Shown here: piece by piece, positions 4,499 to 48,487 of the stretch
Layout of the letters: every line of letters starts with the position of its first letter
Position numbering within the stretch: position 1 is the first letter of the stretch
From: a virus
Reading direction: 5' to 3' (one strand)
DNA length: 64,000 nt
Virus record (IMG/VR): IMGVR_UViG_3300047510_002509
The notes under the pieces: model-generated
What the model was told of the DNA's origin: nothing
Databases searched by the model: none
Seen by the model: the letters and a program-made list of their open reading frames with translations, nothing else
Position numbers and translations under genes: made by a program

Positions 4499-4669
4499 TC
4501 AGGCCGTACGAACTCGCCCTTTTAGGACGTGCCAAGCGTTGCATTTATCGCATCCGTGTAAGAAATAGCTCTCTGGACGCCCTTTTTTGGTTTCCGAGTA
4601 GTTTTTCATCTGGACAAACCTACTAGCCAACTCTCGATTGGCAAAACCCTTTTTAACGCAAGTTGCCAT
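4499..4669 (-). CDS. Small Cys/His hypothetical protein
   Basis: ATG at 4669 directly after the repeated GGGAGCCCGGAAA element; CDKCNAWH. Confidence 0.6.
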   Translation of the reverse strand: MATCVKKGFANRELASRFVQMKNYSETKKGRPESYFLHGCDKCNAWHVLKGRVRTA

Positions 4670-4688
4670 TTTCCGGGCTCCCATTCCG

Positions 4689-4826
4689 TTATTTGAATCT
4701 GCGTCGAACATCGTTAGTGATAAGTCTGCCTTGGAACGTAGATAAGCGAGTAATAACCTTACTGATGAGGTCGATTAAATGACCCCTCCATGTCTGGGTC
4801 TTTTTGTGTCGTGACGTAGTTCTCAT
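4689..4826 (-). CDS. 45-aa hypothetical protein
   Basis: Manual translation MRTTSRHKKTQTWRGHLID...; ATGA-coupled to the upstream ORF. Confidence 0.45.
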   Translation of the reverse strand: MRTTSRHKKTQTWRGHLIDLISKVITRLSTFQGRLITNDVRRRFK

Positions 4827-4960
4827 TTTTCCGGGCTCCCGTTCCGTTCTGAGACCTTTGCGCAGTTGATGCAGATGTCGTAGTCCTTACCAGTGAAGGG
4901 ACAGGAGGACTGGGTGGTGAGTTGATGCTTACAGAAAAGTTGTTTGAGGAGATTAAGCAT
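4823..4960 (-). CDS. 45-aa Cys-rich hypothetical protein
   Basis: Manual translation MLNLLKQLFCKHQL...CPFTGKDYDICINC; GAGG RBS. Confidence 0.55.
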   Translation of the reverse strand: MLNLLKQLFCKHQLTTQSSCPFTGKDYDICINCAKVSERNGSPEK

Positions 4961-5207
4961 CTACTTCCTCCAGTTCGGCTGTGAAGTCGGTGATTTCAAG
5001 GACATGGGTGGTTTCTCTGAGTTTAGGCTTGTCTCCATGCATGAAAGCCATATGCATGGATGAGCCTACCTCTGGGTAAGTCATATCTGTGCACTCAATC
5101 CATTGGAAAGCAGGGGCAATCGTATTCGGAGTGTCCTTGCCTATCTTGAGGAACCGCTTTGGGTAATCAACCAGATACACGCTGGTTTCGGTGCGAACTG
5201 TCAACAT
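4953..5207 (-). CDS. Hypothetical protein, leaderless
   Basis: TTGACA-17-TAGTCT promoter ends 6 nt before the ATG. Confidence 0.65.
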   Translation of the reverse strand: MLTVRTETSVYLVDYPKRFLKIGKDTPNTIAPAFQWIECTDMTYPEVGSSMHMAFMHGDKPKLRETTHVLEITDFTAELEEVDA

Positions 5208-5249
5208 AATAAAAGACTAAGGGTTAACAGTTGCTGTGTCAAATACAAT

Positions 5250-5565
5250 AAAAAGGGGTTGGGGTGAAAACCTAGTACTCGCTTTCGCTTTCCCACCTGC
5301 GCTGCCCCAAGGCGTTACTCAGGTCGTCCCAAGCTTTCGCTCTGCAGGTTGGTTCTGTGGACTCTGCAGTAAAGGGTCTTAAAAGTGAGTAGGTGGACTG
5401 CTTTTTACCACCAAGGCCAAGCTATTACGGCTCTGTAGTACCGCTTTTAGGCCTACCAGACGTTCGGTCGCTAACCACTCTGCTAAGAGCCGCCTGTGCT
5501 TTACCCTCCCCATATAGCTTTGAGAGTGTTCAGCCATACTCCACGCAGCCCGTCGGCTTTGTGTT
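5250..5565 (-). ncRNA. Putative large structured non-coding RNA
   Basis: GC-richer intergenic block with several nested stems, a GAAA tetraloop, an upstream -10 (TAGGAT, 5572-5577) and a U-tract end; no credible CDS. Confidence 0.55.
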
Positions 5566-5674
5566 GAAAAAATCCTAACACATAAATCAGACATTTTGCT
5601 AACTTTATTTAGCAAAAATCCCAATTTTCCGGGCTCCCATTCCCTTTTTCTCCAAAGCAGCGTAGAGTAGGGGT

Positions 5675-10354: not shown

Positions 10355-10576
10355 TTAAGAAACATTATCTATAGGTTTCCAAAGGTATTGACCATCCATA
10401 AAAGGGTTAAGTTCGCTTGAGCCCTGATAAACCTGATTGGTTTCTCTATCTATTAAAAGCCATTTCTCTGGACATTTTGTTGTAATTGAAAGAGTGATTG
10501 CTTCTGGAAGTGTAGGAGCAGTGAAACTTCCCCAAGCCTGTGCTATAGACCCGCTTTGGATGTCTCTGTAGTTCAC
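10355..10576 (-). CDS. Hypothetical protein
   Basis: GTG start directly after the repeated GGGAGCCCGG element; TKCPEKWLLIDRET. Confidence 0.65.
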   Translation of the reverse strand: MNYRDIQSGSIAQAWGSFTAPTLPEAITLSITTKCPEKWLLIDRETNQVYQGSSELNPFMDGQYLWKPIDNVS

Positions 10577-10596
10577 TTTTCCGGGCTCCCTTTCCG

Positions 10597-11046
10597 TTAA
10601 CTTCTTCGGACGCGCTCTATAAGTTCTGTAGAGGAGAAGTTGTGTTTGCGACTATTGTAGTAAATCTCTATGTTGTGAGTTATACAGTAGTCCCTACCTG
10701 TGAAGTCTTTACCTATGTAGTCTTCCCCGATAATTCGAACATCTATGGGCAATGTCTTAAGTAAGTTGAGCAAGTCTTCTTCAGTCTCATAAATGACAAT
10801 CTCATCTACATACTTAACTGCTTTCAGCTGCAACTGACGCTCAATTAAAGACTGTATAGGTTTGCGCTTTTCTGGTCTATCAAGACTTGGGTCTGTTTGA
10901 AGAGCGACTATAAGATGATCGCATGCGGACTTTGCCTCTTCAAGCATGAGAATGTGACCTGCGTGTAGGAGGTCAAAACAAGAAGCGGTAAAACCAACTT
11001 TGTTGTGTTTGAACATACGCTCTAGTTCGAGTAGTGCTGATTCCAT
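10597..11046 (-). CDS. Glycerol-3-phosphate cytidylyltransferase-like (TagD family)
   Basis: FDLLHAGH (HxGH) motif, RKHNFSST. Confidence 0.9.
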   Translation of the reverse strand: MESALLELERMFKHNKVGFTASCFDLLHAGHILMLEEAKSACDHLIVALQTDPSLDRPEKRKPIQSLIERQLQLKAVKYVDEIVIYETEEDLLNLLKTLPIDVRIIGEDYIGKDFTGRDYCITHNIEIYYNSRKHNFSSTELIERVRRS

Positions 11047-11790: not shown

Positions 11791-11892
11791 GTATTTATCA
11801 TAGTAGAGATTTCAATTTTCCGGGCTCTCTTTCCGTTAAAAGCAGCGGCGCGTTGAGAAATTAAGGGTTGGGGAAGAAGGTAGGGTTGTGGA

Positions 11893-34712: not shown

Positions 34713-35156
34713 AGTTTGTCAAGAGGAGAACGGCATGGCTTACGCAGACGGTGACTGTACGAGAGAGCCTATGCCAAAAGACGGCGTGTCAGATATGGAT
34801 GACCTGCTATGACAACGGATTGCTTCTGGTGCGGCGAGGAAGTTAATCGGGACGGCGTGTGCAAAAGCTGCGCAGCAGCCCCATTGCCCGATGCCACCAC
34901 TTCCGAATAACGGCTCGCCCTACAACGAGGTATGCACCCACACTTCCTGTGAAAGCGGCGAGCAACGGCAAGAGATGATGCAGACCCCAGTCACCTGACG
35001 GGTCGGCATGCGCAAGAATTGAAATCATTCTTTAATACTAACGGTATGCACGTAGAACTTAGCCCGTAAGTACAACGGTATGTCGTGTAGTAATTTACAC
35101 CTAAATTACAACGGTAATACTGCAGGAAGGTTTAGCTGCAGCTTAAGATCCGATCC

Positions 35157-35582
35157 CAACTTCCAAATAACTTTGCCAAGCTAGCGGCCTGGCGTTTTCG
35201 CATGAACGCACGAAAAAAGTGCAGGAAAATGTAACCGCTCGGTGACAACAGCAGGTGTACGTACACTCAACATCCAAATAACTTTTATGCAGCCGCAGCG
35301 GATCAGAGCTGTAGGGGGTAAAAATTTCTGATCCATCGGGCCCGAAGCTGTTGAACTTCCAAATAACTTTGGGTAACGGCCCGCCGCCAGATCAGATTTT
35401 TTTACCCCTGAAGCTGCAGCAGCTCCAGATCAGATTCAACATCCAAATAACTCAGTGCACAAAAAATCCGCTGTTCAAAAATCCTTGACAAGACTTGACA
35501 AGGGGTAGTAGGCTAGGTTTCGCAACGCGGGCGCCGCGAAACTAAAAAGGGCCCGATCAGATCTAACTTCCAAATAACTTTT
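35157..35582 (+). repeat. Iteron-like direct repeats AACWTCCAAATAACT (5 copies) in non-coding DNA
   Basis: Copies near 35158, 35269, 35355, 35437, 35565; related copies at 36839, 37083, 37131, 45418, 46049. Confidence 0.75.
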
Positions 35583-35651
35583 ACCATCTCAAGCTGCAGC
35601 ACCAGGTGCACGCCACTTGCGCAGATAAAAAATTTATAATAGAGTTGCGGC

Positions 35652-35948
35652 ATGATAGAGACGCTCATACTGTGGAAGCTTTGGAACATAGAAGACAAAA
35701 TTGAAGGCGAGCCTTCTGGGGAAGATGGGTATCTCTGGATGGTGATGCTCGGTTCTTTGCTCTGGCCTGTTGGTATCTACTTTGTTGTACGTGAATACTT
35801 TGGCAGGTCTAAGTGGCTCGCTCTTTTTGCGGCGGCAGGGATTGGGTTGCTTACCATCCTTGTGCTACCCGTGTATTTACTCATCTCTTTGATTCTGGTT
35901 ATTTACGGATTTTCTTTTCTAGATAAGCTTGACAAAGATGTCAGGTAG
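35652..35948 (+). CDS. Membrane protein, leaderless
   Basis: TAGAGT-6-ATG; hydrophobic. Confidence 0.65.
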   Translation: MIETLILWKLWNIEDKIEGEPSGEDGYLWMVMLGSLLWPVGIYFVVREYFGRSKWLALFAAAGIGLLTILVLPVYLLISLILVIYGFSFLDKLDKDVR

Positions 35949-35958
35949 GTAATAGAAT
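35929..35958 (+). promoter_or_regulatory. Early promoter
   Basis: TTGACA-(TCAGG spacer)-TAGAAT. Confidence 0.8.
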
Positions 35959-36003
35959 AACTAACGGAACAAGAGTTCCATACAAAACGATGAAAGGACA
36001 CCC

Positions 36004-36306
36004 ATGTCAACGATTACAAAAGTAGCGGCTTTACCCCAGTGTGATTTCTGCACAGAGAAGGCCCGCTTTGACGGCATGACTATTTACGGCCCGTGGGGCA
36101 ATATGTGTGAACCACACTTTGATACATACGGCGTCGGACTTGGACTCGGCAAGGGCCAGCGGCTCGTCGAAGAAGGAGAAGATGTTGTGATGTCGTGGGG
36201 CGAGCTCGCGGATCTCAATCACGGCAAGCAGGTAGAACTGTTTGGGTTTTGCACCTGTGAAGACGGCCCGTCTGTGTATGAGGACTGCAACGGAGGGAGG
36301 GACTAA
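36004..36306 (+). CDS. Hypothetical Zn-binding protein
   Basis: GATGAAAGGA leader; CDFC, GPWGNMC..H, GLGLGKGQ. Confidence 0.75.
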   Translation: MSTITKVAALPQCDFCTEKARFDGMTIYGPWGNMCEPHFDTYGVGLGLGKGQRLVEEGEDVVMSWGELADLNHGKQVELFGFCTCEDGPSVYEDCNGGRD

Positions 36307-36423
36307 TGCGCGGATACGTTGAATGGCTTGAGAGCCAAGAGCGAGACGGCTTGGGAACAAGCCACGAAGATTGGATTGACTCGCACCTAGAGAAAGCGGA
36401 TGCGGCACGGGATAGGGAGACGG

Positions 36424-36840
36424 ATGAGACTACCGAATAAGTTGTACCACGCCGCACCTGAGTGCGTGCTCATAAATATTCAAACGGAGGGATTGAAATC
36501 TAACTTCGGAGAAATCTATGCGGCAAGCACTCCAGCGGATGCAATGAACTTTATGTGGTTCAGACTTCTTGACCACCCGCACTACCAGTTCGAGAACGGC
36601 AAGGTAGTCGGCATGGAACTAGAACGGCATGACCGTATCTACGTATTTGAAATTTCAACTAACCGCACAAACAAAGAACGTTGGGAAGTTGGGACGGATC
36701 ACAGCTCAAAATTTTTTGGCGGCGCGGAGAGTTGGGTGTACGGAGGTAAAAATATCGAACGGCGTGCCATAAGCGACATCACATACTTCTCACGAGAGAT
36801 GATTGAAACGGCAAGCAGATCCGCTGCAGCGTCGAACTAA
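36424..36840 (+). CDS. Hypothetical protein, possible ADP-ribosyltransferase/KptA-like fold
   Basis: LYHAA......I..EGL...IY pattern. Confidence 0.55.
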   Translation: MRLPNKLYHAAPECVLINIQTEGLKSNFGEIYAASTPADAMNFMWFRLLDHPHYQFENGKVVGMELERHDRIYVFEISTNRTNKERWEVGTDHSSKFFGGAESWVYGGKNIERRAISDITYFSREMIETASRSAAASN

Positions 36841-36903
36841 CATTCAAATAACTACGGTAAGCCCGTGGAGCTCACATTGAGCCCACGGGTTTATTATTTT
36901 GTC

Positions 36904-37095
36904 ATGGGTAAAAAAGAACGGGATGAACTCAAGCGTCGCATCAAAGGCGTGCCTGGGAACTACGTGCAGAACCAGAAGGCACAGGTCTTTGAAGACCGCC
37001 GCACAAAGCGGCTTCGTACCCGTGGGGTAAAAAACGATAACGCAATTCAAGAATCGTTGATGTCTGATCGCGATCCGCGTCCAACTTCTGAATAA
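36904..37095 (+). CDS. Basic hypothetical protein, leaderless
   Basis: TATTAT-6-ATG; DRRTKRLRTR. Confidence 0.6.
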   Translation: MGKKERDELKRRIKGVPGNYVQNQKAQVFEDRRTKRLRTRGVKNDNAIQESLMSDRDPRPTSE

Positions 37096-37207
37096 CTTGG
37101 CAATGCCGCCAGGGCCCTCCAGGTTGATGGAACTTCCAAATAACTTTCGCTTTTCAAATCTCGCATTTGCTGACTGAACGACACGCCCAAAAAGTTTGAC
37201 AAAGAAC

Positions 37208-37235
37208 TTGACAAAGTGCAGGAAAATAATAGAAT
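37208..37235 (+). promoter_or_regulatory. Early promoter with TGCAGGAA spacer box
   Basis: TTGACA aag TGCAGGAA aataa TAGAAT. Confidence 0.85.
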
Positions 37236-37282
37236 GTATTTTGTCTAGGGTTTCCTAGAAAAGTAGAGTAAGGAAAATAAAA

Positions 37283-37525
37283 ATGGCGACAGTTCAAGAC
37301 CTAATCAAGATGCTTCAAAAAGAATACGACCCAACTCAGGCAATCGTCTTTCAATACTTCACAGCAGAGCACGCTGGACTGGAGGAAGAAGAGTTTGTAG
37401 AAGTTGCAGACTATCTAATGGATAACGACTCATTCGGAGAAGAAACTTCAGAGATGTTTAGTGGCTGGATTACCGAAGCCCAAGATGTTCTAGCAACAGT
37501 AGAAGATGAAGAAGAGGAGGATTAA
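37283..37525 (+). CDS. Acidic early protein
   Basis: AAGGA RBS. Confidence 0.7.
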   Translation: MATVQDLIKMLQKEYDPTQAIVFQYFTAEHAGLEEEEFVEVADYLMDNDSFGEETSEMFSGWITEAQDVLATVEDEEEED

Positions 37526-37527
37526 AA

Positions 37528-37698
37528 ATGACAAATTACAAAATCTATGCGACCCTCACCAGAGAGTATGTGGTTGAGGTAGGCGAAGCACAGAGCGAAG
37601 ATGACGCTATCAACAAACTTGATGACTGGATTTCAGATGACTTCGAGGATTATGAAATCACAGCCAAGTGGGACTTTGTTGCTGTTCCCTCTGAATAA
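37528..37698 (+). CDS. 56-aa acidic early protein
   Basis: GAGGAGG RBS; manual translation MTNYKIYATLTREYVVEV... Confidence 0.65.
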   Translation: MTNYKIYATLTREYVVEVGEAQSEDDAINKLDDWISDDFEDYEITAKWDFVAVPSE

Positions 37699-37701
37699 CA
37701 C

Positions 37702-37730
37702 TTGACAAATAGTCATAAATAAGTAATAAT
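37702..37730 (+). promoter_or_regulatory. Early promoter
   Basis: TTGACA-17-AATAAT. Confidence 0.7.
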
Positions 37731-37775
37731 AGTTTCATCCCGAAAGGGATTTCCAAAACGACGAAAAGAGGAAAA

Positions 37776-38498
37776 ATGCCAAACTGGGTATTCAATACTA
37801 TGTCTATCACAGGAAAAGAAGAAGACCTCAAGAAGTTTGTTGAGAAGGCGAAGAAGCCTCACAACACTTATTGGGAAGACTGGAAAACAAAAGAAATCAA
37901 AGAAGAAATCGACGACAGAGTTATTTCTTTTTGGAACTTCATCAAACCAGAAAACGAGCAACTTTATTTTGGGGCGAGCGATTACAAGCCAGAGGGTTAT
38001 GACCAACTGACTGATGCCGAGAAGATGGCTCTTTCAATGTCATTCAAATCAGATGGTTGGTATGACTGGAACATCCGCAACTGGGGAACTAAGTGGGATA
38101 CAAGCGACCCATACCTTGAAGACAACAGCAAGAAGGGCGAGGTTCAATACCAGTTCTCTACGGCTTGGAGTCCTGCCGAAGGTGCTTACCGAGCAATGGT
38201 TGAGCAACACCCAGAACTGACTTTTGATTTCCACTGTGAAGAAGAGCAAGGCTGGGGCGTGAAGTATGCTGGCGAGAGTGGCGAGTTGGTTGTAGTTGAA
38301 GAGTGGGACATCCCGAACAGCCACGCCGACTACAAAGAGCGTGATAACGAGGACGGATGTGTCTGCTCTTGGGATGCCGACGACCCCGAGAACTGGTATG
38401 ACGACTGCCCAAACAAGGCGGAGCAGGTAGCCAAGTTAGTTGAAGGCACGGAGGAAGTTGTTGCTAAGTTTGAAGACATCAGCGAGATGATTGTCTAA
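37776..38498 (+). CDS. DUF1281/YubB ferredoxin-like domain protein
   Basis: MPNW..N...I.G, GWYDWNIRNWGTKWD, F.TAWSP. Confidence 0.85.
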   Translation: MPNWVFNTMSITGKEEDLKKFVEKAKKPHNTYWEDWKTKEIKEEIDDRVISFWNFIKPENEQLYFGASDYKPEGYDQLTDAEKMALSMSFKSDGWYDWNIRNWGTKWDTSDPYLEDNSKKGEVQYQFSTAWSPAEGAYRAMVEQHPELTFDFHCEEEQGWGVKYAGESGELVVVEEWDIPNSHADYKERDNEDGCVCSWDADDPENWYDDCPNKAEQVAKLVEGTEEVVAKFEDISEMIV

Positions 38499-38589
38499 AG
38501 ACGGCACGGCGTGGGGTGGGGTAAAAAGCCCCACCCTCTGCCGACGGCAGGGTAGGATTGGATTTACAAACGGAAGGGTAAAAAACGGC

Positions 38590-38931
38590 ATGTCTAAAGA
38601 AGAAAACATTGTTGATGCGGAGCTCGTCGCAGGCGAGGATTTCGAGGTAAAAATTATCGATCCGCAGCCTATCGAGCGTAGCTTGCACTACTTCGCGCTT
38701 GACGGGAACTACGGTAACGCGAGTGGCATGCTCGTGCTAGAGACTACGTACTGGAGAGATGTCGACTGGGAGATTCTGGAGTCAGCATCTGATGACCAGC
38801 GCGCCAATGTCGCACGGTTGATTACTGAGTCATACGAGAAGCCTGAAGACATGACGGTGCTGTATGACAAGTTCGAGCAGTACGGTATTGACCTTGATGA
38901 TTTTATGCCGCGAGACCAGCTTGACAGCTAG
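38590..38931 (+). CDS. Acidic hypothetical protein
   Basis: Probable start MSKEENIV. Confidence 0.65.
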   Translation: MSKEENIVDAELVAGEDFEVKIIDPQPIERSLHYFALDGNYGNASGMLVLETTYWRDVDWEILESASDDQRANVARLITESYEKPEDMTVLYDKFEQYGIDLDDFMPRDQLDS

Positions 38932-39095
38932 GCCTCACGTAGGGTAAAAATATAGAACTGCCGCGGGTTTCTTCGTCGTTATCCCGTGTGCCACACCTGA
39001 GCATGTGTAAAAACTGCTCACTATCCTTTTCTGGCGAGCGCCGATGTCCCCCAAAGAGGGGACAGGAAATAAATCAAAAAGTTATTGCGTTCTAC

Positions 39096-39124
39096 TTGAC
39101 ACGATTGCAGGAAGATGCAATAAT
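39096..39124 (+). promoter_or_regulatory. Early promoter with TGCAGGAA box
   Basis: TTGACA cgat TGCAGGAA gatgc AATAAT. Confidence 0.8.
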
Positions 39125-39163
39125 TATCTCAATGCGAAAGCAGAAACGACGAAAGGAAAAATT

Positions 39164-39652
39164 ATGGGATACACCCACTACTATAAAAGAAGTCTTGATA
39201 GCAACGACCCAGAACTTTACGACAAGGTTCGTAAAGGTTTCACAGAGTTAGTAAAAAATGCCGAACTCAATGGCATTACAGTTGCAGATGCTTTTGGAGA
39301 AAAAGCTGGCGCATGGCAAGCAGATGGCGAGCGCATCGCTTTCAATGGTCTTGGAGAAGAGAGTTGCGAAACTTTTTCTTTCTCTCAGATTGTTCCACCT
39401 CAACCTCATTGGCGCGAAAACGAAAAAACTTTTTTCGATTTCACAAAGACTAATTATCGTCCATACGATGCTCTAGTCTGCGCGACCCTAATCCTTATCA
39501 AAGAGGTTTATGGTTCACAGGTTGAGATTTCCTCAGATGGTGGTTGGGACGATTGGGCAGATGGCTATGAACTTTACTTCTCAACCTTTAGAAACCCAAT
39601 GACACCTGAAAAACTTTTTGCCGAAGAACTTGCTTTTTTGGCAGGAAAGTAG
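39164..39652 (+). CDS. Conserved phage early protein
   Basis: ACGACGAAAGGA leader; MGYTHY, FNG, ETF, F.KT..RPYD, SSDG. Confidence 0.75.
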   Translation: MGYTHYYKRSLDSNDPELYDKVRKGFTELVKNAELNGITVADAFGEKAGAWQADGERIAFNGLGEESCETFSFSQIVPPQPHWRENEKTFFDFTKTNYRPYDALVCATLILIKEVYGSQVEISSDGGWDDWADGYELYFSTFRNPMTPEKLFAEELAFLAGK

Positions 39653-39658
39653 TAGATT
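39630..39658 (+). promoter_or_regulatory. Early promoter with GCAGGAA box
   Basis: TTGCTT-17-TAGATT. Confidence 0.7.
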
Positions 39659-39693
39659 AGTTTTCACTAGCACCAACGACGAAAGGACACCCA

Positions 39694-40152
39694 ATGCTAG
39701 ATAACACGAAAGATGTTCAGGGCGTAGGCGTTTACGCCGAGTTCCGTAAGCCCGGAGCAACAATGCAAATCATTGTCACACCTGATGGATACACAACTGA
39801 TGGGAAAGATGTTCCTGCCAATTTGTTCCGTCGAGTAGTGACACCAGCATCACCTAAGAAACAATGGCGCAACAATGCAATTCCTAATCACGCGATTACA
39901 GAATTGAGTGGAGTGGCACTTGGTGATGAAAAGAAAGAGGCTTTTGCTTCCCAGCGTTTGTTTTTTGCGATTGACTTGTTTGATGCAATAAACAATGGTG
40001 GGTGGGAAATTGTCAAAGACGCTTTTCTTGTTGAAGTTTCCAAAAAAGATTTGGAAGATGTTCGGACAGGAAAGACACCCAACAAACTTCTCTATCGCAT
40101 TGGTTTGGTTAGAGAAGCCAACGAGTTCCCACAAGAACTAATACCAGCGTAA
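39694..40152 (+). CDS. Hypothetical early protein
   Basis: ACGACGAAAGGA leader. Confidence 0.75.
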   Translation: MLDNTKDVQGVGVYAEFRKPGATMQIIVTPDGYTTDGKDVPANLFRRVVTPASPKKQWRNNAIPNHAITELSGVALGDEKKEAFASQRLFFAIDLFDAINNGGWEIVKDAFLVEVSKKDLEDVRTGKTPNKLLYRIGLVREANEFPQELIPA

Positions 40153-40177
40153 AGACGACGAAAGGACATAGGGAAAA

Positions 40178-41221
40178 ATGGAAAACACAAATCTTAGAGA
40201 GAGATACAACTCTCTCGGTGGTAGTAAAACTTTGTGGCAGATGGTTGAAGAAGTTGTTGCTCAGGCAGTATCTGAAACTTCAACAACAAATCTATCTGCA
40301 CAAGTTGTATCTGCGGGGCGTTATGTTGCTCGCGCTAGTGGCTCAGATAGAGCGCCACGAAAGTCAAAGCAAGTAATTTCCGTAGATAGCATGGAAGGTG
40401 AAGAGTCTTACGAAAGACCAAATGGCGAAATGTATTTTGGTCGCATGTGGGGCGAACACTCAGATGTGATGGCACTTCGCAAAGCGAGAGAAATGACTAT
40501 GAAGTCTTTCTCAGGTGAAGGTGGCTCTCCAATGTTTGCACTTATCTATGGCGCTCCGGGTTGCGGTAAAACTGCGATGGTTGAAGCCGCTTTTGGTGAT
40601 GATGTTGTCACACTCATTGGAACAGGTGACACCGAAGTTGCTGACATGGTTGGTGGTTATGTTCAAACTCCAAGTGGTGGTTTCGATTGGGTTGATGGTG
40701 GTTTAGTAGATGCCGCCGTCAATGGCAAAGTTTATTTCATTGACGAAATTGGTTTGATTGACCCAAAGGTTTTGTCACTTGCTTATGGTTTGATGGACGG
40801 ACGACGCGAGTTAGTTGTCACCGCAAATCCAGAGCGTGGCACTATCAAGGCTCACCCAAACTTCTATGTAGTTGCCGCGACTAACCCAAATGCTCCGGGA
40901 GTTCGTTTGTCTGAGGCGTTGCTATCTCGTTTCACTCTTCAAGTTGAAATGACAACAGATTGGGCGCTCGCAAAAAAGCTCGGAGTTCCAACTGCGATAG
41001 TTACTGCATCACAGAACCTTGCTAAGAAGCAAGTGTCTAATGAAGTTTCATGGTCTCCACAATTCCGTGAGTTGCTTGCTTTCCGAGATGTTGCGAAAAC
41101 TTTTGGCAATACTTTCGCTATCTCGAACCTACTTGCCTCTGCCCCCGAAATAGACAGACCTGTCGTTGCCGATGTGCTGACAAGGGCTTATGGGGAAGAG
41201 GTAAAGCCAGCGAAAATCTAA
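40178..41221 (+). CDS. MoxR/CbbQ/CobS-like AAA+ ATPase
   Basis: GAPGCGKT, FIDEI, AATNP, LSEALLSRF. Confidence 0.92.
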   Translation: MENTNLRERYNSLGGSKTLWQMVEEVVAQAVSETSTTNLSAQVVSAGRYVARASGSDRAPRKSKQVISVDSMEGEESYERPNGEMYFGRMWGEHSDVMALRKAREMTMKSFSGEGGSPMFALIYGAPGCGKTAMVEAAFGDDVVTLIGTGDTEVADMVGGYVQTPSGGFDWVDGGLVDAAVNGKVYFIDEIGLIDPKVLSLAYGLMDGRRELVVTANPERGTIKAHPNFYVVAATNPNAPGVRLSEALLSRFTLQVEMTTDWALAKKLGVPTAIVTASQNLAKKQVSNEVSWSPQFRELLAFRDVAKTFGNTFAISNLLASAPEIDRPVVADVLTRAYGEEVKPAKI

Positions 41222-41289
41222 CCCCTATGTCGGATTTTCGCTGAGGGGTAGGGGGCGCTTCATGGGTGTCGCGCCCCCCACTTCCCTAC

Positions 41290-41319
41290 TTGACACCCAA
41301 AGATGTTTTATTGTATTAT
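41290..41319 (+). promoter_or_regulatory. Early promoter
   Basis: TTGACA-18-TATTAT. Confidence 0.75.
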
Positions 41320-41367
41320 TTTCATGTCGAGGACAACGACATAAAGACAAATGGAAGGAACGACGAA

Positions 41368-43137
41368 ATGGCACACATAAAGGTTTCTGCAACTAGAGCA
41401 GAGTCCACTCCCCCTGAGTGGTTAGCAACAGGCGCACAGATAGGCGAACTTGTAAACACTTGGTCTGGAAGGTCAGACATAATCGCTTATGTAGGTGAAG
41501 GTGCAGGTGGTATCGCACCAGCATGTTTCAACCCACCATTAGCAGAGGTTGAAGTAAATACAAAGGTCGCGTTTGGTGGCGCAACAACTCCAGCGATGGT
41601 TGGAGATTTGAGAGAGCGCAAACAACAGTTTGAGTTTCCAAAAGCGATAGGTGCAATTTTGCACGAAGCCTTTCACGCAAAGTTTTCTATCTTTGACATG
41701 GAAAGTGCATACAAGGCGCTCGCAAAAGATGAATACGAAGCCTTGATACTTTTGGAAGAGGGTCGTATTGAAACTCAGGGTCTATGGCACATGCCTGAGT
41801 CTTTGAACTTTCTACGCGCTTGCGCGATGGAACTTGTTATCGCAGATGCAAAAGAAATGGAAGCCAGCACTTCAACAACTCAAACTTGCGCCAGCGCAGT
41901 TGGATTGGTCTTGGCTCGCGTTGATGCGGGGATTGTAGATGCTCATGAAGTTGCAAATGTTGAAAAAGAAGTTTCAGCTTTTTTAGGTGAAGAAGTTATT
42001 TCAAAGTTGCGAGAGATTTCTAAAAACTTTCGCGAAACTATTATTGACTTTCCAACTCAGGCAGAGACTCACCTTTACCCATTAGCAAAAGAGTGGGCAA
42101 AGATTATTCGTGATGTGAAAGAAGAGAAGGGCGAGAAAGATGAGCAGATGGCTCAGGCTTTCGCGCAGATGATGATGGAAGCGATTAGCGAAGCATCAGA
42201 GGAAATGGAAGTTTCAACAGGTATGGCGCTCGCAGACCAGCAGATGTCAGAAGAGATGGCAGAGGAAGCAAAGTCAAAAGCCAACCAAGCCAAAGAAGAA
42301 AACGAAAACAAAGATGTATCAGAAAAAGTTTTCTCAAAATCCACAACAGAAACAGGTGGAAGCACAAACTCGACTCTAGTAGAAGTTCGTAAGCCAACCA
42401 GCGCAGAGCGCATCGCGGCAGTTACGATTTCTAAGATGTTAGAAAAAGCAAAGTATCGTGACAGAGATGCGATTGAAATTAGTTCAATTATTCCTCCCGG
42501 AAGATTGCGCTCTCGCGCTATTGTTCAAAATGCCGCGATGAAGTCACGCGGGATTGTCCAGCAGACAGAAGCATGGCGTCGCACAGTTCGTAAGCAGACA
42601 GATGAAACAAGTCTTACAGTTGGTGTGATGGTGGACATTTCAGGTTCAATGGGAAGTGCCATGAAACCAATGGCGACAACTGCGTGGGTAATGTCAGAAG
42701 CAGTTCGCAGAGTGCAGGGTCGTTGCGCGATGGTTTACTACGGCTCAGATGTTTTTCCAACTTTGAAGGCAGGGCAACACCTTGAAGAGGTTCGAGTCTA
42801 TTCAGCGATGGATAATACTGAAAAGTTTGACAAAGCCTTTAGAGCCTTAGATGGCGCACTAAATCTGCTCAATGGTAGTGGCGCTCGATTGCTTGTCATT
42901 GTGTCCGATGGACAATACACAGGTGAAGAGCGTGGCAAGGCTCGCCATTGGACAAAGCGTTGCGCCGAGTCAGGTGTTGCGGTTTTGTGGCTTCCGTTCG
43001 ACTCAGGGCATTACGCCAAATCACTACTAGAAAGTAGCGCGGGTGTAGTAATGTCAGGAGTGCTTGACCCTGTATCGGCTTCCGTCGAGATTGGAAAAAC
43101 GGCAGAGCGAGTCCTAACAAATGTGGGCATGCGGTAG
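41368..43137 (+). CDS. VWA (CobT-like) protein with N-terminal HExxH metallopeptidase-like motif
   Basis: HEAFH...EEGRIE; MIDAS DISGSM; VSDG; start MAHIK after GGAAGGA. Confidence 0.88.
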   Translation: MAHIKVSATRAESTPPEWLATGAQIGELVNTWSGRSDIIAYVGEGAGGIAPACFNPPLAEVEVNTKVAFGGATTPAMVGDLRERKQQFEFPKAIGAILHEAFHAKFSIFDMESAYKALAKDEYEALILLEEGRIETQGLWHMPESLNFLRACAMELVIADAKEMEASTSTTQTCASAVGLVLARVDAGIVDAHEVANVEKEVSAFLGEEVISKLREISKNFRETIIDFPTQAETHLYPLAKEWAKIIRDVKEEKGEKDEQMAQAFAQMMMEAISEASEEMEVSTGMALADQQMSEEMAEEAKSKANQAKEENENKDVSEKVFSKSTTETGGSTNSTLVEVRKPTSAERIAAVTISKMLEKAKYRDRDAIEISSIIPPGRLRSRAIVQNAAMKSRGIVQQTEAWRRTVRKQTDETSLTVGVMVDISGSMGSAMKPMATTAWVMSEAVRRVQGRCAMVYYGSDVFPTLKAGQHLEEVRVYSAMDNTEKFDKAFRALDGALNLLNGSGARLLVIVSDGQYTGEERGKARHWTKRCAESGVAVLWLPFDSGHYAKSLLESSAGVVMSGVLDPVSASVEIGKTAERVLTNVGMR

Positions 43138-43227
43138 CGCGGTAGCGAAACCCATGAACTCAATAGCCCCCGAAACAAGTGCGTCCTTCCAGCGCGTTGT
43201 CCAACTTGTGGCAGGGGCAAAAATTGG

Positions 43228-43260
43228 AAGCCCCGTCTGAAACCAAGAGGCGGGGCTTTC
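43228..43260 (+). terminator. Intrinsic terminator
   Basis: AAGCCCCG...CGGGGCTTT. Confidence 0.7.
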
Positions 43261-43294
43261 AACCTAAAAACAAAACGACGAAAGGCGGGTAAAA

Positions 43295-43744
43295 ATGGAC
43301 GGCATACAACCACTTCTTGACCATGTAGGTGCAGAGGTCGAGTGGGATAGCGGATTACCGATGCACGAAGATAAACGCGATGCGATGTTTTATTGCGATG
43401 GCGGTTCGTCACGATTTGTGGCGAGGGTAAAAATAGCTGAGTTTGCGGTTGATGTTTATTGCGATGGCATCACCGATGTGCGGGACAGAACAAATGGCGA
43501 GCGCTACCGATACGGCGGTGACTTGATAATGAACAACTACACAACGGACGAGTTGCTAAATCAGGCAACCGAAAGCGGAGACCTTGATGTTGTCAATAAC
43601 AGTTGGTTCGATTTGTATTGCGAAGGCGAACACCTTGATACGGTAAGCCACGATGTGTGGGACGCGCTAAGAGATGCAATTACTTTTCTTCAAACGGAAA
43701 AGCAAAACGCTCAGGCGATTGAAAACGTCGGCGTGGATTTCTAA
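43295..43744 (+). CDS. Acidic early protein
   Basis: ACGACGAAAGG leader. Confidence 0.7.
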   Translation: MDGIQPLLDHVGAEVEWDSGLPMHEDKRDAMFYCDGGSSRFVARVKIAEFAVDVYCDGITDVRDRTNGERYRYGGDLIMNNYTTDELLNQATESGDLDVVNNSWFDLYCEGEHLDTVSHDVWDALRDAITFLQTEKQNAQAIENVGVDF

Positions 43745-43754
43745 GGGGTAAAAA

Positions 43755-44240
43755 ATGTCGAGAGTTATTCAGTTGATGTTGGTGGAAGCAGAAACAGCAG
43801 AAGAAGCGGCGAACCATGTGTCAGGCCTTCTTGATAATGAAACCCCTACACCCCATTGGTCGGACTACCATGACCTTGTTGATGAGTTTGATGGTAAGAG
43901 TGCGGTTGCGTATTCAGAAACCATTGGTCAGATAAAACTCAAAGAGTTCCTCGCTTATCGCGAAGCTGATCTGAAAAGATACTATGACAGGGTAAAAAAT
44001 TTCGATCTTGCCAAAGCAGTTGAGAATTACGATCCGTTCCGAGCAGGGCATAGTTTTACGGAAGACGATTTCCGAACTTATGAACTACGCAAACTTGCAG
44101 GTATCTTGGAAGACAGTTGGACTATGGACACAGGCGTCTATGATTTGGAAACTTGGTCAGCAAATCTCAAAGCCTTCAGAGAGCGTTGCCAACTCGCCCC
44201 TGAGATGCAATTCCTAGTTGCGGTGAGTTTCCACCACTAG
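43755..44240 (+). CDS. Hypothetical early protein
   Basis: WSD motif; C-terminal FLV.V.FH. Confidence 0.7.
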   Translation: MSRVIQLMLVEAETAEEAANHVSGLLDNETPTPHWSDYHDLVDEFDGKSAVAYSETIGQIKLKEFLAYREADLKRYYDRVKNFDLAKAVENYDPFRAGHSFTEDDFRTYELRKLAGILEDSWTMDTGVYDLETWSANLKAFRERCQLAPEMQFLVAVSFHH

Positions 44241-44263
44241 GCGACACGCCCAGCAAAATGTCT

Positions 44264-44292
44264 TTGACAAGATGTCAGGAAAATGCAAGAAT
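44264..44292 (+). promoter_or_regulatory. Early promoter with TCAGGAA box
   Basis: TTGACA-17-AAGAAT; GACACGCC upstream. Confidence 0.75.
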
Positions 44293-44317
44293 ACTTTCAA
44301 CGACGAAAGGAGCAGAA

Positions 44318-44425
44318 ATGCCAAAGAAGCCAGTAATGATTTACATACATTGTTGGAGATGCGGTGCGCCGTTCTCTATCAAGGAAAGTGATTACACCCA
44401 TCACGCGGGGTGCGGAAAGTGCTAA
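44318..44425 (+). CDS. 35-aa Zn-finger peptide
   Basis: ACGACGAAAGGAG leader; CWRC...CGKC. Confidence 0.65.
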   Translation: MPKKPVMIYIHCWRCGAPFSIKESDYTHHAGCGKC

Positions 44426-44562
44426 TGACTATCTGCGCCAGATGCGGTTGGGCTATCCATCAGGATTTTGGGTGGGTAGATGGGTATGGCTATTTAGATT
44501 GCGGTGGCAAGCCCCATGTGCCATCAAAAGTTGTTACCAATTCGTTATCAAAAAGTGCTTGA
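44425..44562 (+). CDS. 45-aa Cys/His peptide
   Basis: TAATG coupling; CARC...C....H. Confidence 0.55.
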   Translation: MTICARCGWAIHQDFGWVDGYGYLDCGGKPHVPSKVVTNSLSKSA

Positions 44563-44568
44563 CTTGAC

Positions 44569-44598
44569 TTGACAGATGTCAGGAAGGTCGTGTAATGT
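44569..44598 (+). promoter_or_regulatory. Early promoter with TCAGGAA box
   Basis: TTGAC x3, then TCAGGAAGG, TAATGT. Confidence 0.75.
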
Positions 44599-44676
44599 TT
44601 TATCTATCAGGGAAACCTGAGAACCTCTCTGAGGGAGTCTCCGAGAGAAATGACATAAAGATAAGGAGTCTTAGTT

Positions 44677-45039
44677 ATGTCTAAGGCATCAGTTACAAAA
44701 GCAGTATCAACCCCAGCAGTTGTTGAGGTTGTAACCACAGCAGAGGTAAAGGCAGACGCCGTTTATCTCGACAAGGCAACACAGATTGTCATTGACGACT
44801 TCATCGCGACTCGCGACATGATTACGAAGTTGGAAAAGACAAAGAAGGAACTAGAGGCAAAAATCAAGGATTATCTTGGTGAGGCTACTAAGGGACTTCT
44901 CCCAGACGGAACTCTCCGTATCGAGGCGTCAAATCGCGAGCGTCGCGGAATTGACACCGAAGCCCTAAAGACAGCCTTCCCAGAGGCATACGAGGCAACA
45001 CAGACTCTTAGCAAGTATGTTGTCTTGGTCGCTAAGTAA
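44677..45039 (+). CDS. Coiled-coil early protein (resembles the C-terminal region of YqaJ-type proteins)
   Basis: AAGGAG RBS; K..LE..IK..LG, ID...LK...PE.Y. Confidence 0.7.
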   Translation: MSKASVTKAVSTPAVVEVVTTAEVKADAVYLDKATQIVIDDFIATRDMITKLEKTKKELEAKIKDYLGEATKGLLPDGTLRIEASNRERRGIDTEALKTAFPEAYEATQTLSKYVVLVAK

Positions 45040-45130
45040 GACCTAATCCCCCCATTAGGAGCAAGCCCCTCACCCCTCAGGGGTGGGGGGTTTCTTAGTG
45101 GAAAAAAATAAAAGACGAAGAGAGGTAAAA

Positions 45131-45307
45131 ATGACGAAGAGGTATGTTGTTCAGTATTCAGGTTGGGCAGTTGTAGAAGCCAAAGATGAGAAACAGGCTT
45201 CCTATGATGTTGGAACTCTACTTGCCGATAGTGGCTTACCGAACGATGGTGGCGAAGGTGAGTGGCTAATTGACGAAGTCGAACTTGAAGAAGAGGACGA
45301 AGAGTAG
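45131..45307 (+). CDS. Small acidic protein
   Basis: GAGG RBS. Confidence 0.65.
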   Translation: MTKRYVVQYSGWAVVEAKDEKQASYDVGTLLADSGLPNDGGEGEWLIDEVELEEEDEE

Positions 45308-45320
45308 TAAGAAGAAAAAA

Positions 45321-45353
45321 AAGCCCCCGCGAAGATGCGGGGGTTTTCTTTTT
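45321..45353 (+). terminator. Intrinsic terminator
   Basis: CCCCCGC...GCGGGGG TTTTCTTTTT. Confidence 0.85.
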
Positions 45354-45470
45354 GCTTAGATGCGGGGTAAAAATTCCAGGAGCTGCGGCAGCAACAGCAA
45401 ATACCTGCACCAGGTGCAAATAACTTTTCAATGATGCGCCGCTATTTGGTGACATGAACGAACTAGATGC

Positions 45471-45499
45471 TTGACAAAGATGCAGGAAAGTAGTAGATT
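45471..45499 (+). promoter_or_regulatory. Early promoter with TGCAGGAA box
   Basis: TTGACA-17-TAGATT. Confidence 0.85.
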
Positions 45500-45531
45500 A
45501 GTTTTTGTCAGAAGGACGAAAGGACAAACAA

Positions 45532-45915
45532 ATGCAAACTCTCGACAAGCAAGTAGTAGAACTCGACTCCAGTTGTGTATGCGCCGAAGAAGATGGCACA
45601 TGGACAGAGTGTTGGGGTTGTTGGGACGACTCGAAGGAACTCTATGCAGAAATGCTAGAGGCTTGGAAGCGTGCCATTAGTTTCGATGAAGGCAAACAAG
45701 TAGTGCGGATAGATGGCAGGGCTATGACTTGGCTACGCCGTGATGGGTATGCCGTAGTTGAGGCAGACAAGGTTTTAGATGCCTTGCAGATAAATGGCGA
45801 CTTCCGCTTGGTATTCACACTTGAAGAAACAGAACTGAAGTGCGTGCGGTATTCACATGATGAGCCAGTAGGTGCGTCGTTTACTTTCTCTGCGATGGAA
45901 CAGCAAGAAGACTAA
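45532..45915 (+). CDS. Hypothetical early protein
   Basis: GACGAAAGGA leader; CxC..CxxC; SHDEP.G. Confidence 0.75.
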   Translation: MQTLDKQVVELDSSCVCAEEDGTWTECWGCWDDSKELYAEMLEAWKRAISFDEGKQVVRIDGRAMTWLRRDGYAVVEADKVLDALQINGDFRLVFTLEETELKCVRYSHDEPVGASFTFSAMEQQED

Positions 45916-45928
45916 GCACAAACTCCAG

Positions 45929-45966
45929 AAGACTCCCGTATCGCAAGATGCGGGAGTTTTTCTTTT
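45929..45966 (+). terminator. Intrinsic terminator
   Basis: ACTCCCGTATC-gcaa-GATGCGGGAGT TTTTCTTTT. Confidence 0.85.
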
Positions 45967-46068
45967 GTTGAAGATGCAGCGGATCGCGATCAGTTTTGAG
46001 CTAGGGGTAAAAATTTTGTCCTGGCGGGCCAGGCGCGGATCGTAGATGCAAATAACTTTTCGATCAGA

Positions 46069-46109
46069 CCCTGCGGACCTTGTGGTCCCTGCGGACCTTG
46101 TGGTCCCTG
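46069..46109 (+). repeat. 18-bp tandem repeat CCCTGCGGACCTTGTGGT (about 2.3 copies)
   Basis: Direct reading. Confidence 0.8.
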
Positions 46110-46140
46110 TTGCGCTCGCCGACACGCCAGAAAAATAAAC

Positions 46141-46169
46141 TTGACAAAGTTGCAGGAAGGTGAAATGAT
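46141..46169 (+). promoter_or_regulatory. Early promoter with TGCAGGAA box
   Basis: TTGACA-17-AATGAT; GACACGCC 20 bp upstream. Confidence 0.8.
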
Positions 46170-46273
46170 TCTTTTACACACGGAGTCCAGCAGTGGTCAC
46201 CTGAACGACTTGAACTCTAGAGGGTCGGAAACAAGATGTTGCTCCGTGTGTATCTAAAATGACGAAAGGACAA

Positions 46274-46519
46274 ATGATGGCACAAATGGAAATTACAGAA
46301 AAAGAAGCAGAACTATCTGCGATGGGTATGGCTATGTTGCTTACCTTTATGCAAGAACAAATCAACAAGCACAAGAACCACAAAGATTATTCAATGGACA
46401 AGTTGTTTGCGTTGATGGAGATGTATGCAACGATTGGTGATTTATGGGTGCGGTATCAAATGATTACTGGACTTACAAGAGAAGAAATTGCAGAGTATCT
46501 GCAAGAGCAGGAAGGATAA
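46274..46519 (+). CDS. Hypothetical early protein
   Basis: GACGAAAGGA leader. Confidence 0.65.
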   Translation: MMAQMEITEKEAELSAMGMAMLLTFMQEQINKHKNHKDYSMDKLFALMEMYATIGDLWVRYQMITGLTREEIAEYLQEQEG

Positions 46520-46521
46520 AA

Positions 46522-46653
46522 ATGGACGACATACTAAGAACTGTTTTGCAAGAGGCGAACCAAATTTGTATTGAGTGCGGAAGAAAGTTTGACTTGTTTG
46601 ATGAGGAACAAGCAGCAGAGTGGCACGCTGGACACGATTGTGAGGTGGAGTAA
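46522..46653 (+). CDS. Small Zn-binding protein
   Basis: CIECGRKFDL...EW..GHDCE. Confidence 0.65.
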   Translation: MDDILRTVLQEANQICIECGRKFDLFDEEQAAEWHAGHDCEVE

Positions 46654-46655
46654 AA

Positions 46656-46895
46656 ATGGCAGAGCAGGAGAAGCGCGAGTATCACTTCGTAGTTCGCTAC
46701 GACGCGGACACAGATGAGTTTGACATGGACTACGACACTTTGATGGCAAAGTTTCATGACAGTCCTATCTATGACCCTGAAACAGGAGAGTGGATTAGAT
46801 TGAAGGACACAGACTGGGAGAACGAGGGAACTAATTACAACAACGCGGGTGACGCAATTTGGGACGCGGTAAAAAATCTGAAGTTAAGGAGTTGA
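46656..46895 (+). CDS. Acidic hypothetical protein
   Basis: GGAG RBS. Confidence 0.65.
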   Translation: MAEQEKREYHFVVRYDADTDEFDMDYDTLMAKFHDSPIYDPETGEWIRLKDTDWENEGTNYNNAGDAIWDAVKNLKLRS

Positions 46896-46896
46896 G

Positions 46897-47115
46897 ATGG
46901 AAGAAGCGATTGACGAGATAAATCTTTCTCGAACAGTTTTGTTTGTTGGTGACTACTTCTCAATGATGACAACAGTTGTCCTCGCCGAAGAAAAGCGCGA
47001 GAAAGATGAAGATGACGATGAGTTTGCCATTAGGTTGGCAAAGCAGTTTATGCAGGAGTATTACGGCTGGGACTTAGAAGCAGTATCAAATGAAATAGGG
47101 ATTGTTGAGGAGTAG
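46897..47115 (+). CDS. Acidic hypothetical protein
   Basis: AAGGAG RBS. Confidence 0.65.
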   Translation: MEEAIDEINLSRTVLFVGDYFSMMTTVVLAEEKREKDEDDDEFAIRLAKQFMQEYYGWDLEAVSNEIGIVEE

Positions 47116-47315
47116 CGGCGCTCGCAGCAGTAAATAGAGGGTAAAAATCTGGCTTATTCTAGAACTCCAGCGTCGCGTAGTTGGAGCCTAGCTCGCACGC
47201 CGCTGATGAGGCGGGATTGCTACCCCCTGCCGCACCCTCCTTTGCACCCCCTAGCAGGGGAGGAGTGTCGAGTCCTTCCACATCATCTGCCTGTATGAGG
47301 TTTAGTATTGATGGT

Positions 47316-47561
47316 ATGGCTGAGATTGAAATCCTTGACTCCTCTGTTCACCCAAACCCTGAAGGGGAGAAGTTTGTTGCGGCGTTGATTGATGACGCTA
47401 ATGATGGTCGAGTCAAGTTGGTAATTATGTTTGAGGAAGAAGGCTACACGGCTGTTCTTGACTTGGACTCACTAATTGAAGAAGAAGACATCTCTGCAAA
47501 AAAGCACACACATCTAGGCGGCAGATACGACGCACTCCTGCGTGACCTGCTCTGGGAGTAA
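47316..47561 (+). CDS. Acidic hypothetical protein
   Basis: Probable start MAEIEIL; the upstream part of the track ORF is hairpin-rich UTR. Confidence 0.6.
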   Translation: MAEIEILDSSVHPNPEGEKFVAALIDDANDGRVKLVIMFEEEGYTAVLDLDSLIEEEDISAKKHTHLGGRYDALLRDLLWE

Positions 47562-47564
47562 AAA

Positions 47565-48146
47565 TTGACAACGATGGTTGCGGTTCAAGGACCGACATGG
47601 GCTGTTGTTGGCTGCGATAGCCAAGTTACTGAAGATAATCGCATTTTTGTTCTTCCAAAAGATAATCCAAAGATTGTGAAGAACGGTCCTTTCTTGTTTG
47701 GCGCTGCGGGTGACATGAGAGCAATAAATCTTCTTGCTTATCAGTTCAAGCCACCTGCGCCGCCTGTAAGTTGTTCAGTCAGCAGATTAGATAAGTTCAT
47801 CTCCACAAAGTTCATACCTGAGTTGAAAACCCTGTTTGATGAAGTTCAGTATGGAGAAAAGGGGACGCAAGATTCAGAAATTCTCTGCGTTGTTCATGGA
47901 CACATCTACGAAATTGGGTCTGGATACGATTGGTGTCGCGATCAGACTGGGATTTACGCGTTCGGATCTGGTGGTCAATACGCGTTGGGATCGCTCTACA
48001 ACCAGCTAGAGGGTAAAAAATTGTCCATCACTGCCGCCCGTGCCGCTGTGCGGCGCTCGCTAGAGGTCGCAACAACCTTAGACCCCAACACAGGTGGGTC
48101 GTTCCTCATCACAGTTCAACAAGATGAGTGCCGTCAGCCCAGGTAA
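47565..48146 (+). CDS. Proteasome beta/HslV-like Ntn peptidase
   Basis: N-terminal (M)TT, DSQVT, K, GAAG, GSGG.YALG, D..TGG. Confidence 0.85.
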   Translation: MTTMVAVQGPTWAVVGCDSQVTEDNRIFVLPKDNPKIVKNGPFLFGAAGDMRAINLLAYQFKPPAPPVSCSVSRLDKFISTKFIPELKTLFDEVQYGEKGTQDSEILCVVHGHIYEIGSGYDWCRDQTGIYAFGSGGQYALGSLYNQLEGKKLSITAARAAVRRSLEVATTLDPNTGGSFLITVQQDECRQPR

Positions 48147-48246
48147 CTTTCGTTCCTGCTCTTCTAAACAACTTTTCTAAGTTCCTGCTGGTGCGTCCCC
48201 CATTTGTGATGTTTATCAAATTGTTACATTTTCCTGCATTTTGGAC

Positions 48247-48274
48247 TTGACTTTCCTGCATTTCTGAGTATTGT
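48247..48274 (+). promoter_or_regulatory. Early promoter with inverted TTCCTGCA boxes
   Basis: TTGACT-16-TATTGT; TTCCTGCA at 48231 and 48253. Confidence 0.65.
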
Positions 48275-48310
48275 TATCTATGTAAGGAAAAAACGACGAA
48301 AGGAAAGACA

Positions 48311-48484: not shown

Positions 48485-48487
48485 GAC

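Follow-up and report, generated by a model that had tools for sequence, protein, structure and literature searches.

A divergent manA RNA and a structured RNA family without an Rfam match form a probable stable-RNA cassette in a putative phage of Actinobacteria

Since 2010 the manA RNA has been listed as a candidate riboswitch. Marine manA RNAs commonly lie in potential 5' UTRs, and a cis-regulatory role was proposed for them (PMC2864571). Transcriptome data revealed a copy within a tRNA array of a Bifidobacterium megaplasmid (PMC10832533). According to a 2026 preprint, manA RNAs assemble into pentamers, octamers, decamers and a 60-mer and build RNA-only cages, for which no biological role is known; the subunits are joined by an intermolecular L5-L7 kissing contact and by either an L3-L8 or an L8-L9 contact (bioRxiv 10.64898/2026.07.01.735769). 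Cage formation took place in vitro, at about 3 mg/mL, and of ten manA constructs screened five are listed without a structure (10.64898/2026.07.01.735769). RNA-only cages are also formed by GOLLD and ROOL (bioRxiv 10.1101/2024.12.08.627333).

This study concerns a stretch of 64,000 nucleotides (the window) from an IMG/VR virus record (IMGVR_UViG_3300047510_002509), a virus genome of 136,029 bp whose completeness estimate is complete. A preliminary description had placed a structured non-coding RNA at 5250-5565, and homologs and covariation bore this out. The single RNA of about 315 nt that it envisaged was found instead to be two separable RNAs in tandem behind one promoter: a divergent member of the manA family, as judged from its sequence and covariation, and a second structured RNA, which we refer to as motif B. 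All stems named in that description, as well as the TAGGAT hexamer, were found in place in a sequence check. It had also suggested an ornate phage RNA of a known or a new class; the element is indeed a phage RNA of unknown function, but its 5' 180 nt are the known manA and only the 3' 117 nt lie outside Rfam. As explained overall, the locus is quite probably a two-gene stable-RNA cassette of a ~136-kb phage of Actinobacteria. The features are collected in Table 1.

Table 1. Positions of the RNAs, their predicted interaction strands and neighbouring elements (window numbering unless another locus is named)
Feature	Position	Strand	Basis or remark
Whole cassette (promoter, manA, motif B)	5256..5620	-	Presence/absence unit
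manA RNA (RF01745), actinophage subfamily	5385..5565	-	Rfam match, covariation, custom model
manA loop L3 (AAGCUAU)	5514..5520	-	Pairs with 5425-5419, 7 Watson-Crick pairs
3' side of manA P8 loop region (AUAGCUU)	5419..5425	-	L3 partner
manA loops L5 (UAGC, 5485-5482) and L7 (UAGCG, 5473-5469)	5469..5485	-	2-bp GC/GC kissing pair
Motif B, ~117-nt structured RNA family outside Rfam	5265..5381	-	Model R1, covariation
Motif B loop L2, near-invariant	5348..5363	-	Pseudoknot candidate strand
Extended -10 element TG-N-TAGGAT	5572..5580	-	Positional homology; predicted +1 A5565, -35 weak (about 5596-5602)
Promoter of 84-aa ORF, TTGACA-17 nt-TAGTCT-6 nt-ATG	5214..5242	-	Leaderless mRNA, start 5207; function predicted from sequence
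84-aa ORF	4953-5207	-	One homolog, 83% identity
Repeat copies (core GGGAGCCCGGAAAA, ~22-29 bp)	4664-4692, 4822-4850, 5620-5648, 10572-10600, 11811-11839, 54618-54646		
Repeat copy at cassette edge	5620..5648	-	One of 6 copies, marks cassette boundaries
manA, Rhodococcus phage Francesca (PP978770.1)	L144 4981-5170		Unannotated, 72.9 bits
manA, Corynebacterium phage C3PO (NC_042085.1)	L145 2343-2535		Unannotated, 47.2 bits

The Rfam comparison that had been proposed as a check gave a divided answer. At the gathering cut-off no family was found in the window, and manA appeared only in E-value mode, for the 5' 180 nt. There, RF01745 matches over its full length (5561-5382, model positions 1-192 of 192, 52.6 bits, E 2.1e-12), with a genome-wide E-value of 6.8e-14, and none of 14 control genomes was matched. 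The score lies 2.6 bits under the gathering cut-off of 55.2 bits, which is a curation threshold, and five relatives from the same subfamily score above it (55.4-64.9 bits). The Rfam cut-off conceals some genuine manA genes in actinophages. A custom model (R2) scores the window copy at 173.8 bits, with the window sequence included in its training set. The predicted fold comprises P1 with a GACG loop, P2, P3, a P4-P5-P7 junction, P8 and P9; P6 is missing, as in the solved member 6FAB. Helices P1-P5 and P7-P9 are supported by covariation, and 28 of the 44 predicted pairs show compensatory change on both sides among 11 homologs. The GGTGG/CCACC stem noticed previously is P9, all five pairs of which form in 46 of 46 distinct homologs. 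The CGGCTCT/AGAGCCG stem did not hold, as it is fully paired in just one of these 46 sequences. The stacked P2/P9 arm was recognised as a tRNA neither by ARAGORN nor by the tRNA model.

With regard to the loops of manA, the strand complementary to L3 sits just before the 3' arm of P8. Across 16 distinct cores, cognate L3 and P8-loop sequences have a mean complementarity of 5.3 bp against 3.4 bp for non-cognate combinations, an excess reached in none of 5000 permutations. New sequences outside this sample gave the same pairing, with 6 bp in Francesca and 8 bp in C3PO, and by eye the L3 of the preprint's Photobacterium construct A28C contains UCAGC, with GCUGA at the equivalent spot before the P8 3' strand. 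L5 and L7 switch together, the kissing pair being AC/GU in at least four sequence groups, or AU/AU, as read by eye from the alignment and without a formal statistic; L083 is the one exception, and in L103 P7 is deleted. Comparison of the sequences thus showed that the two loop pairings joining subunits in the manA cryo-EM assemblies covary in this subfamily. That they are intermolecular here and build cages in cells is what we infer from the in vitro structures of the preprint (10.64898/2026.07.01.735769), sequence covariation being equally compatible with pairing inside one molecule. The manA of the window is likely to oligomerise in vitro, and it would act in trans, neighbouring copies being joined through the L5-L7 and L3-P8-loop pairings into rings of the pentamer type and into small, closed cages like those of the solved manA structures. 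The retention of two subunit contacts by compensatory change over many variants suggests selection on the pairings.

The actinophage manA subfamily was found in about 80 viral contigs and in two cultured actinophages. A pattern for the manA 5' end returned 85 stretches, three of them by chance; a tRNA or tmRNA lies within 1 kb of 61 of the 85 loci, and a tRNA or terminator-like hairpin follows in 56 of 85 under a loose heuristic used without a shuffle control. A typical locus has a promoter or tRNA before manA and a terminator or tRNA after it. In both Francesca and C3PO, manA lies flush between two tRNA genes, and the P9 word is common to 13 Corynebacterium phage records. Two exact-pattern scans of viral contigs with the P9 hairpin gave no match, the patterns being too strict. 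Pattern matches in L007, L017, L097, L122, L125 and L136-L140 were rejected as chance. In L058, L063, L075, L101, L117 and L128 manA is longer, the P4-P7 domain containing large insertions, and these variants may form different assemblies. Just upstream of manA in L012, L013, L015, L025 and L029 lie unannotated tRNA-like or structured elements, and similar elements occur in the array of L006 (2040-2340 and 2540-2760); all of them have T-arm-like ends finishing in UCCAC and are missed by ARAGORN at default settings.

Motif B was modelled from 20 homologs with the window copy excluded (R1), and this model scores 5381-5265 at 76.2 bits (E 6e-19). The closing stem P1 pairs 5378-5375 with 5272-5269, and P2 pairs 5369-5364 with 5347-5342 beneath a 16-nt loop. 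These are followed by P3 with a GAAA loop, a UGRGACG junction, P4, a GGGA junction, P5 and an AGUACUA junction; in the window copy P4 is extended and the variable P5 is cut down to a GNRA hairpin. The previously named stems CTGCAG/CTGCAG, AGC-GAAA-GCT and CCTG/CAGG proved to be P2, P3 and P4, which are fully paired in all 24 sequences and carry compensatory changes. Among these 24 distinct sequences, 97.5% of cells are paired and 12 pairs show compensatory change. The covariation exceeds that of all 500 shuffles and all slid controls in an alignment fitted to the model, and RNAalifold recovered most of the same helices from a plain alignment. Invariance was observed at 34 of the 40 junction and loop positions and at 18 of the 42 paired ones, figures inflated by the closeness of the homologs (mean 87%, minimum 72% identity).

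A pseudoknot is probable, and for the near-invariant L2 two registers were identified: GUCCA with UG(R)GAC at 5331-5326, and UCCAC with GUGGG near 5296-5292. Both fit all 24 sequences, and compensatory change was found in neither. The 3' end reads CCA in 28 of 30 copies, and CAC in the window and in L026. A T-box-like reading of GUGGGAAC offers a possible lead, in which motif B would bind tRNA CCA ends.

Motif B is, on the evidence of its sequences, an RNA family without an Rfam match: two different copies compared with Rfam at E up to 10 gave nothing but one 14-nt chance match. ARAGORN and Rfam revealed no T arm or cloverleaf that would mark a tRNA or tmRNA. Literature searches, including full-text searches for its conserved words, returned no description in article text, a scope short of the 10,006 candidate viral RNAs that Fremin et al. 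(2023; PMC10690425) list. RNase P, raiA, twister, twister-sister, hatchet, pistol, HDV-like and hammerhead RNAs were considered and rejected for want of an Rfam match. Their core motifs are presumably absent from motif B or wrongly ordered in it. A group I intron core was also rejected, as the order of the P7 strands is reversed and L118 has a C to U change at the guanosine-site pair.

Motif B occurs in about 30 other IMG/VR contigs, mostly in tRNA/tmRNA arrays, and three independent patterns returned largely the same contig set. A tRNA or tmRNA lies within 1 kb of 26 of 32 motif B loci, and in L045/L046 motif B exactly fills the gap between tRNA-Met and tRNA-Leu. One exact-pattern scan of GTDB genomes gave 10 matches, all failing model R1. 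BLAST found no cultured-phage match, and short chance pieces were all that plasmids gave; in Francesca and C3PO model R1 gave no match. A conserved stretch of ~55 nt with a possible long stem, which may be another RNA or a promoter region, lies directly upstream of motif B in L118 (about 410-465) and also in L014, L024, L028 and L032.

In the window, 4-5 nt separate manA (5565-5385) from motif B (5381-5265). Elsewhere their arrangement differs. L006 (near-identical to L008), a phage contig with a tmRNA/tRNA array that was detected when metagenomes were scanned for the manA P9 hairpin, has motif B about 370 nt upstream of manA, in reverse order relative to the window. In L026, L009 and L118 motif B comes first, followed by a separate promoter-like site and then manA. 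Among records at least 90% complete, four have both RNAs, four motif B only and seven manA only. This comparative analysis showed manA and motif B to be independently folding units, each kept by covariation, each found without the other and both normally placed among phage tRNA/tmRNA genes. The close relative L141 has both flanks joined, with exactly 365 nt (5620 to 5256) missing, and the RNAs are also missing at the syntenic site of L002, L003 and L005; these four relatives indicate that the cassette is accessory and independent of the 84-aa ORF. Both RNAs would thus be accessory genes that are gained, lost and reordered as modules. A further observation is that CACCCCAACCCC, which follows motif B (window 5255-5266, minus strand), resembles CACCCCTACCCC, which follows manA in L026/L039 and starts a terminator there; that this likeness reflects an order swap by recombination is speculative.

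The promoter proposed previously was confirmed in its position, as TAGGAT coincides with the TANNNT hexamer site of the homologs, 6 nt before the RNA start. Of 42 promoter-type manA loci, 29 have TANNNT at precisely this distance of 6 nt from the AAC start, as against none of 24 tRNA-adjacent ones, and TG is present at -15/-14 in 27 of the 42 promoter-type loci. TG-N-TAGGAT is, we infer, the RNA promoter, from which a sigma-70-type polymerase of the host would start the transcript at about A5565. A consensus promoter scan missed both this promoter and that of the 84-aa ORF, since their -10 hexamers match at only 3-4 of 6 positions and the first has a weak -35. The transcript is then predicted to be cut into manA and motif B by tRNA-processing nucleases of the host, a step that we consider reasonably likely because homologs lie flush against tRNA genes and motif B occupies the slot filled by a tRNA behind manA in relatives, where the tRNA follows the same short pyrimidine-rich spacer. 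Processing is less certain here, as the genome is without tRNA genes and its motif B ends in CAC rather than CCA.

Several alternative explanations were weighed against the two-gene cassette. The region could be one new ornate RNA of about 315 nt held by a long-range closing helix, as first described. Its parts are indeed 4-5 nt apart, share a promoter and are both missing together in L141, and the transcript may remain uncut in the source phage. However, the halves are found alone, apart or in reversed order in the other phage genomes examined, the 5' arm of the supposed closure is already used as the 3' strand of manA P3b, and homologs do not keep the first long stem, which makes a single RNA highly improbable. 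The supposition that the stems arose by chance in intergenic DNA, or that the region codes for protein, draws on folding energies no better than those of shuffled sequences (z = +0.31, not above chance, for the 341-nt region, and +0.28 to -0.74 for sub-regions). Minimum-free-energy folding is uninformative here, so that the evidence for RNA structure is comparative. This evidence consists of the Rfam E-value of 2e-12 for manA and two covariance-supported families over about 110 contigs. The overlapping ORFs had rightly been judged spurious: the frame of the minus-strand ORF at 5379-5624 is open in 2 of 46 homologs, whose lengths spread over all three frames. The proposed homolog comparison thus returned covariation and a reading frame that is not conserved; covariation refutes the chance or coding origin, whose probability we regard as negligible. 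It is, finally, very unlikely that manA acts as a cis-regulator or riboswitch, as its Rfam label has it, controlling the 84-aa ORF. Marine manA is often found in potential 5' UTRs (PMC2864571), the RNA lies upstream of ORF 5207-4953 on the same strand, and no canonical terminator was found between them, including before the U-tract. Against this, motif B intervenes, manA does not occupy a 5'-UTR position at the window locus, and the ORF, which has no PHROG family, is missing from every other fetched locus apart from L141. It has its own predicted leaderless-type promoter, and in the RNA-free L141 the homologous ORF sits right behind the upstream flank, with the repeat on both sides and with the same promoter geometry and another -10 (TAACCT). 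Behind most manA homologs comes a tRNA or a terminator-like hairpin, and some have tRNAs on both sides. The gene context, with a promoter or tRNA before and a terminator or tRNA after, thus points to a stand-alone RNA and not to a riboswitch.

The role of motif B is harder to assign. It may adopt a compact junction with a pseudoknot, in which the invariant single strands would offer a surface for binding. Phage tRNA and tmRNA arrays may help to protect translation when the host attacks it, which favours a role as a decoy for, or a binder of, some host factor (one acting in tRNA processing, translation or anti-phage defence) that would serve the same purpose as the arrays. We put this forward tentatively, by analogy, as the most likely single role, and a scaffold or other function is, taken together, just as probable. 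Theta (HDV-like) ribozymes sit beside phage tRNAs and help processing, and motif B could similarly be a new ribozyme, for example a self-cleaving one, aiding the processing of phage stable-RNA transcripts. The higher invariance of its junctions and loops (34/40) than of its paired positions (18/42), its likely pseudoknot and its frequent location directly beside tRNAs are in line with this, and its short G(A)GAC/GUCC pairing, which contains a bulged purine, is reminiscent of helix P7 in group I introns. Yet none of the Rfam ribozymes gave a match up to an E-value of 10, the strands are ordered the opposite way to those of group I P7, and the G-C pair that would be the G-site is G-U in L118. 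Motif B also persists in a tRNA-free genome, and its discrete ends and CCA suggest a processing product rather than a processing element. A ribozyme, the main rival to the decoy or binder, is unlikely. We are doubtful, too, of a bolder combination, in which motif B would be a new catalytic or ligand-binding RNA class, free in tRNA arrays, and manA a trans-acting cage-builder in infected Actinobacteria and not a riboswitch.

With regard to the source of the cassette, no tRNA genes were found in the 136,029-bp genome, which has two WhiB genes; these point to an actinobacterial host, and WhiB was found in 23 of 24 records tested. Near the cassette lie genes for an endonuclease, an endolysin, a DNA methyltransferase, a thymidylate synthase and a recombinase of the integrase/invertase type. 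A dispersed repeat with the core GGGAGCCCGGAAAA is present in six copies of the same orientation in the window. Among the fetched loci it is confined to close relatives (L002-L005, L026/L039 and L141), where it flanks gene cassettes that differ between phages, and it may serve as a site for recombination or for protein binding. The window also has a recombinase gene, at 2066-2749. In the other arm of the window (35153-37147 and 35986-48562, plus strand), an element CAAATAACTTT is repeated in eight copies, and many ACGACGAAAGGA words lie upstream of likely start codons.

The context of the manA subfamily favours a free trans-acting RNA and argues against the cis-regulatory label. As manA is present, unannotated, in the cultured phages Francesca and C3PO, tests of expression, assembly and knockout are possible. 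Motif B is a compact family with an unusually conserved core and a candidate for ribozyme, ligand and cryo-EM screens.

Compared with tRNA mimics, tmRNA and YrlA, motif B has similar stem-closed ends, a 3' CCA in 28 of 30 copies and a placement in arrays like that of tRNA genes, but it is without T, D and anticodon arms and its closing stem has only 4 bp. It shares with theta ribozymes and group I P7 the location beside phage tRNAs, a probable pseudoknot and a P7-like helix with a bulged purine, whereas its own closing stem, its CCA end and its varying G-site pair set it apart. With regard to manA, the full-length model match, the layout of P1-P5 and P7-P9, the L5-L7 pairing and the proximity to tRNAs, as in the tRNA-array copy of the Bifidobacterium megaplasmid (PMC10832533), agree with described members. 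The pairing between L3 and the 3' strand of the P8 loop is equivalent to the L3-L8' contact of Photobacterium manA A28C/A767 and, by eye, also to that of construct 6FAB. In contrast, the RNAs described here belong to actinobacterial phages rather than marine cyanophages or Photobacterium, occur in a stand-alone gene context rather than in 5' UTRs and, in the window, score slightly under the cut-off; this copy, being without P6, cannot make the L6-P6' contact seen in Photobacterium manA, and L8-L9 complementarity is not evident by eye. The kinship with GOLLD or ROOL raised at the outset found no match to either Rfam model at E up to 10, and those RNAs measure 600-800 nt or more, against 180 and 117 nt here. 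Nevertheless, they too are encoded by phages, lie near tRNA islands and have unknown functions, and manA plausibly works, by analogy, like GOLLD and ROOL.
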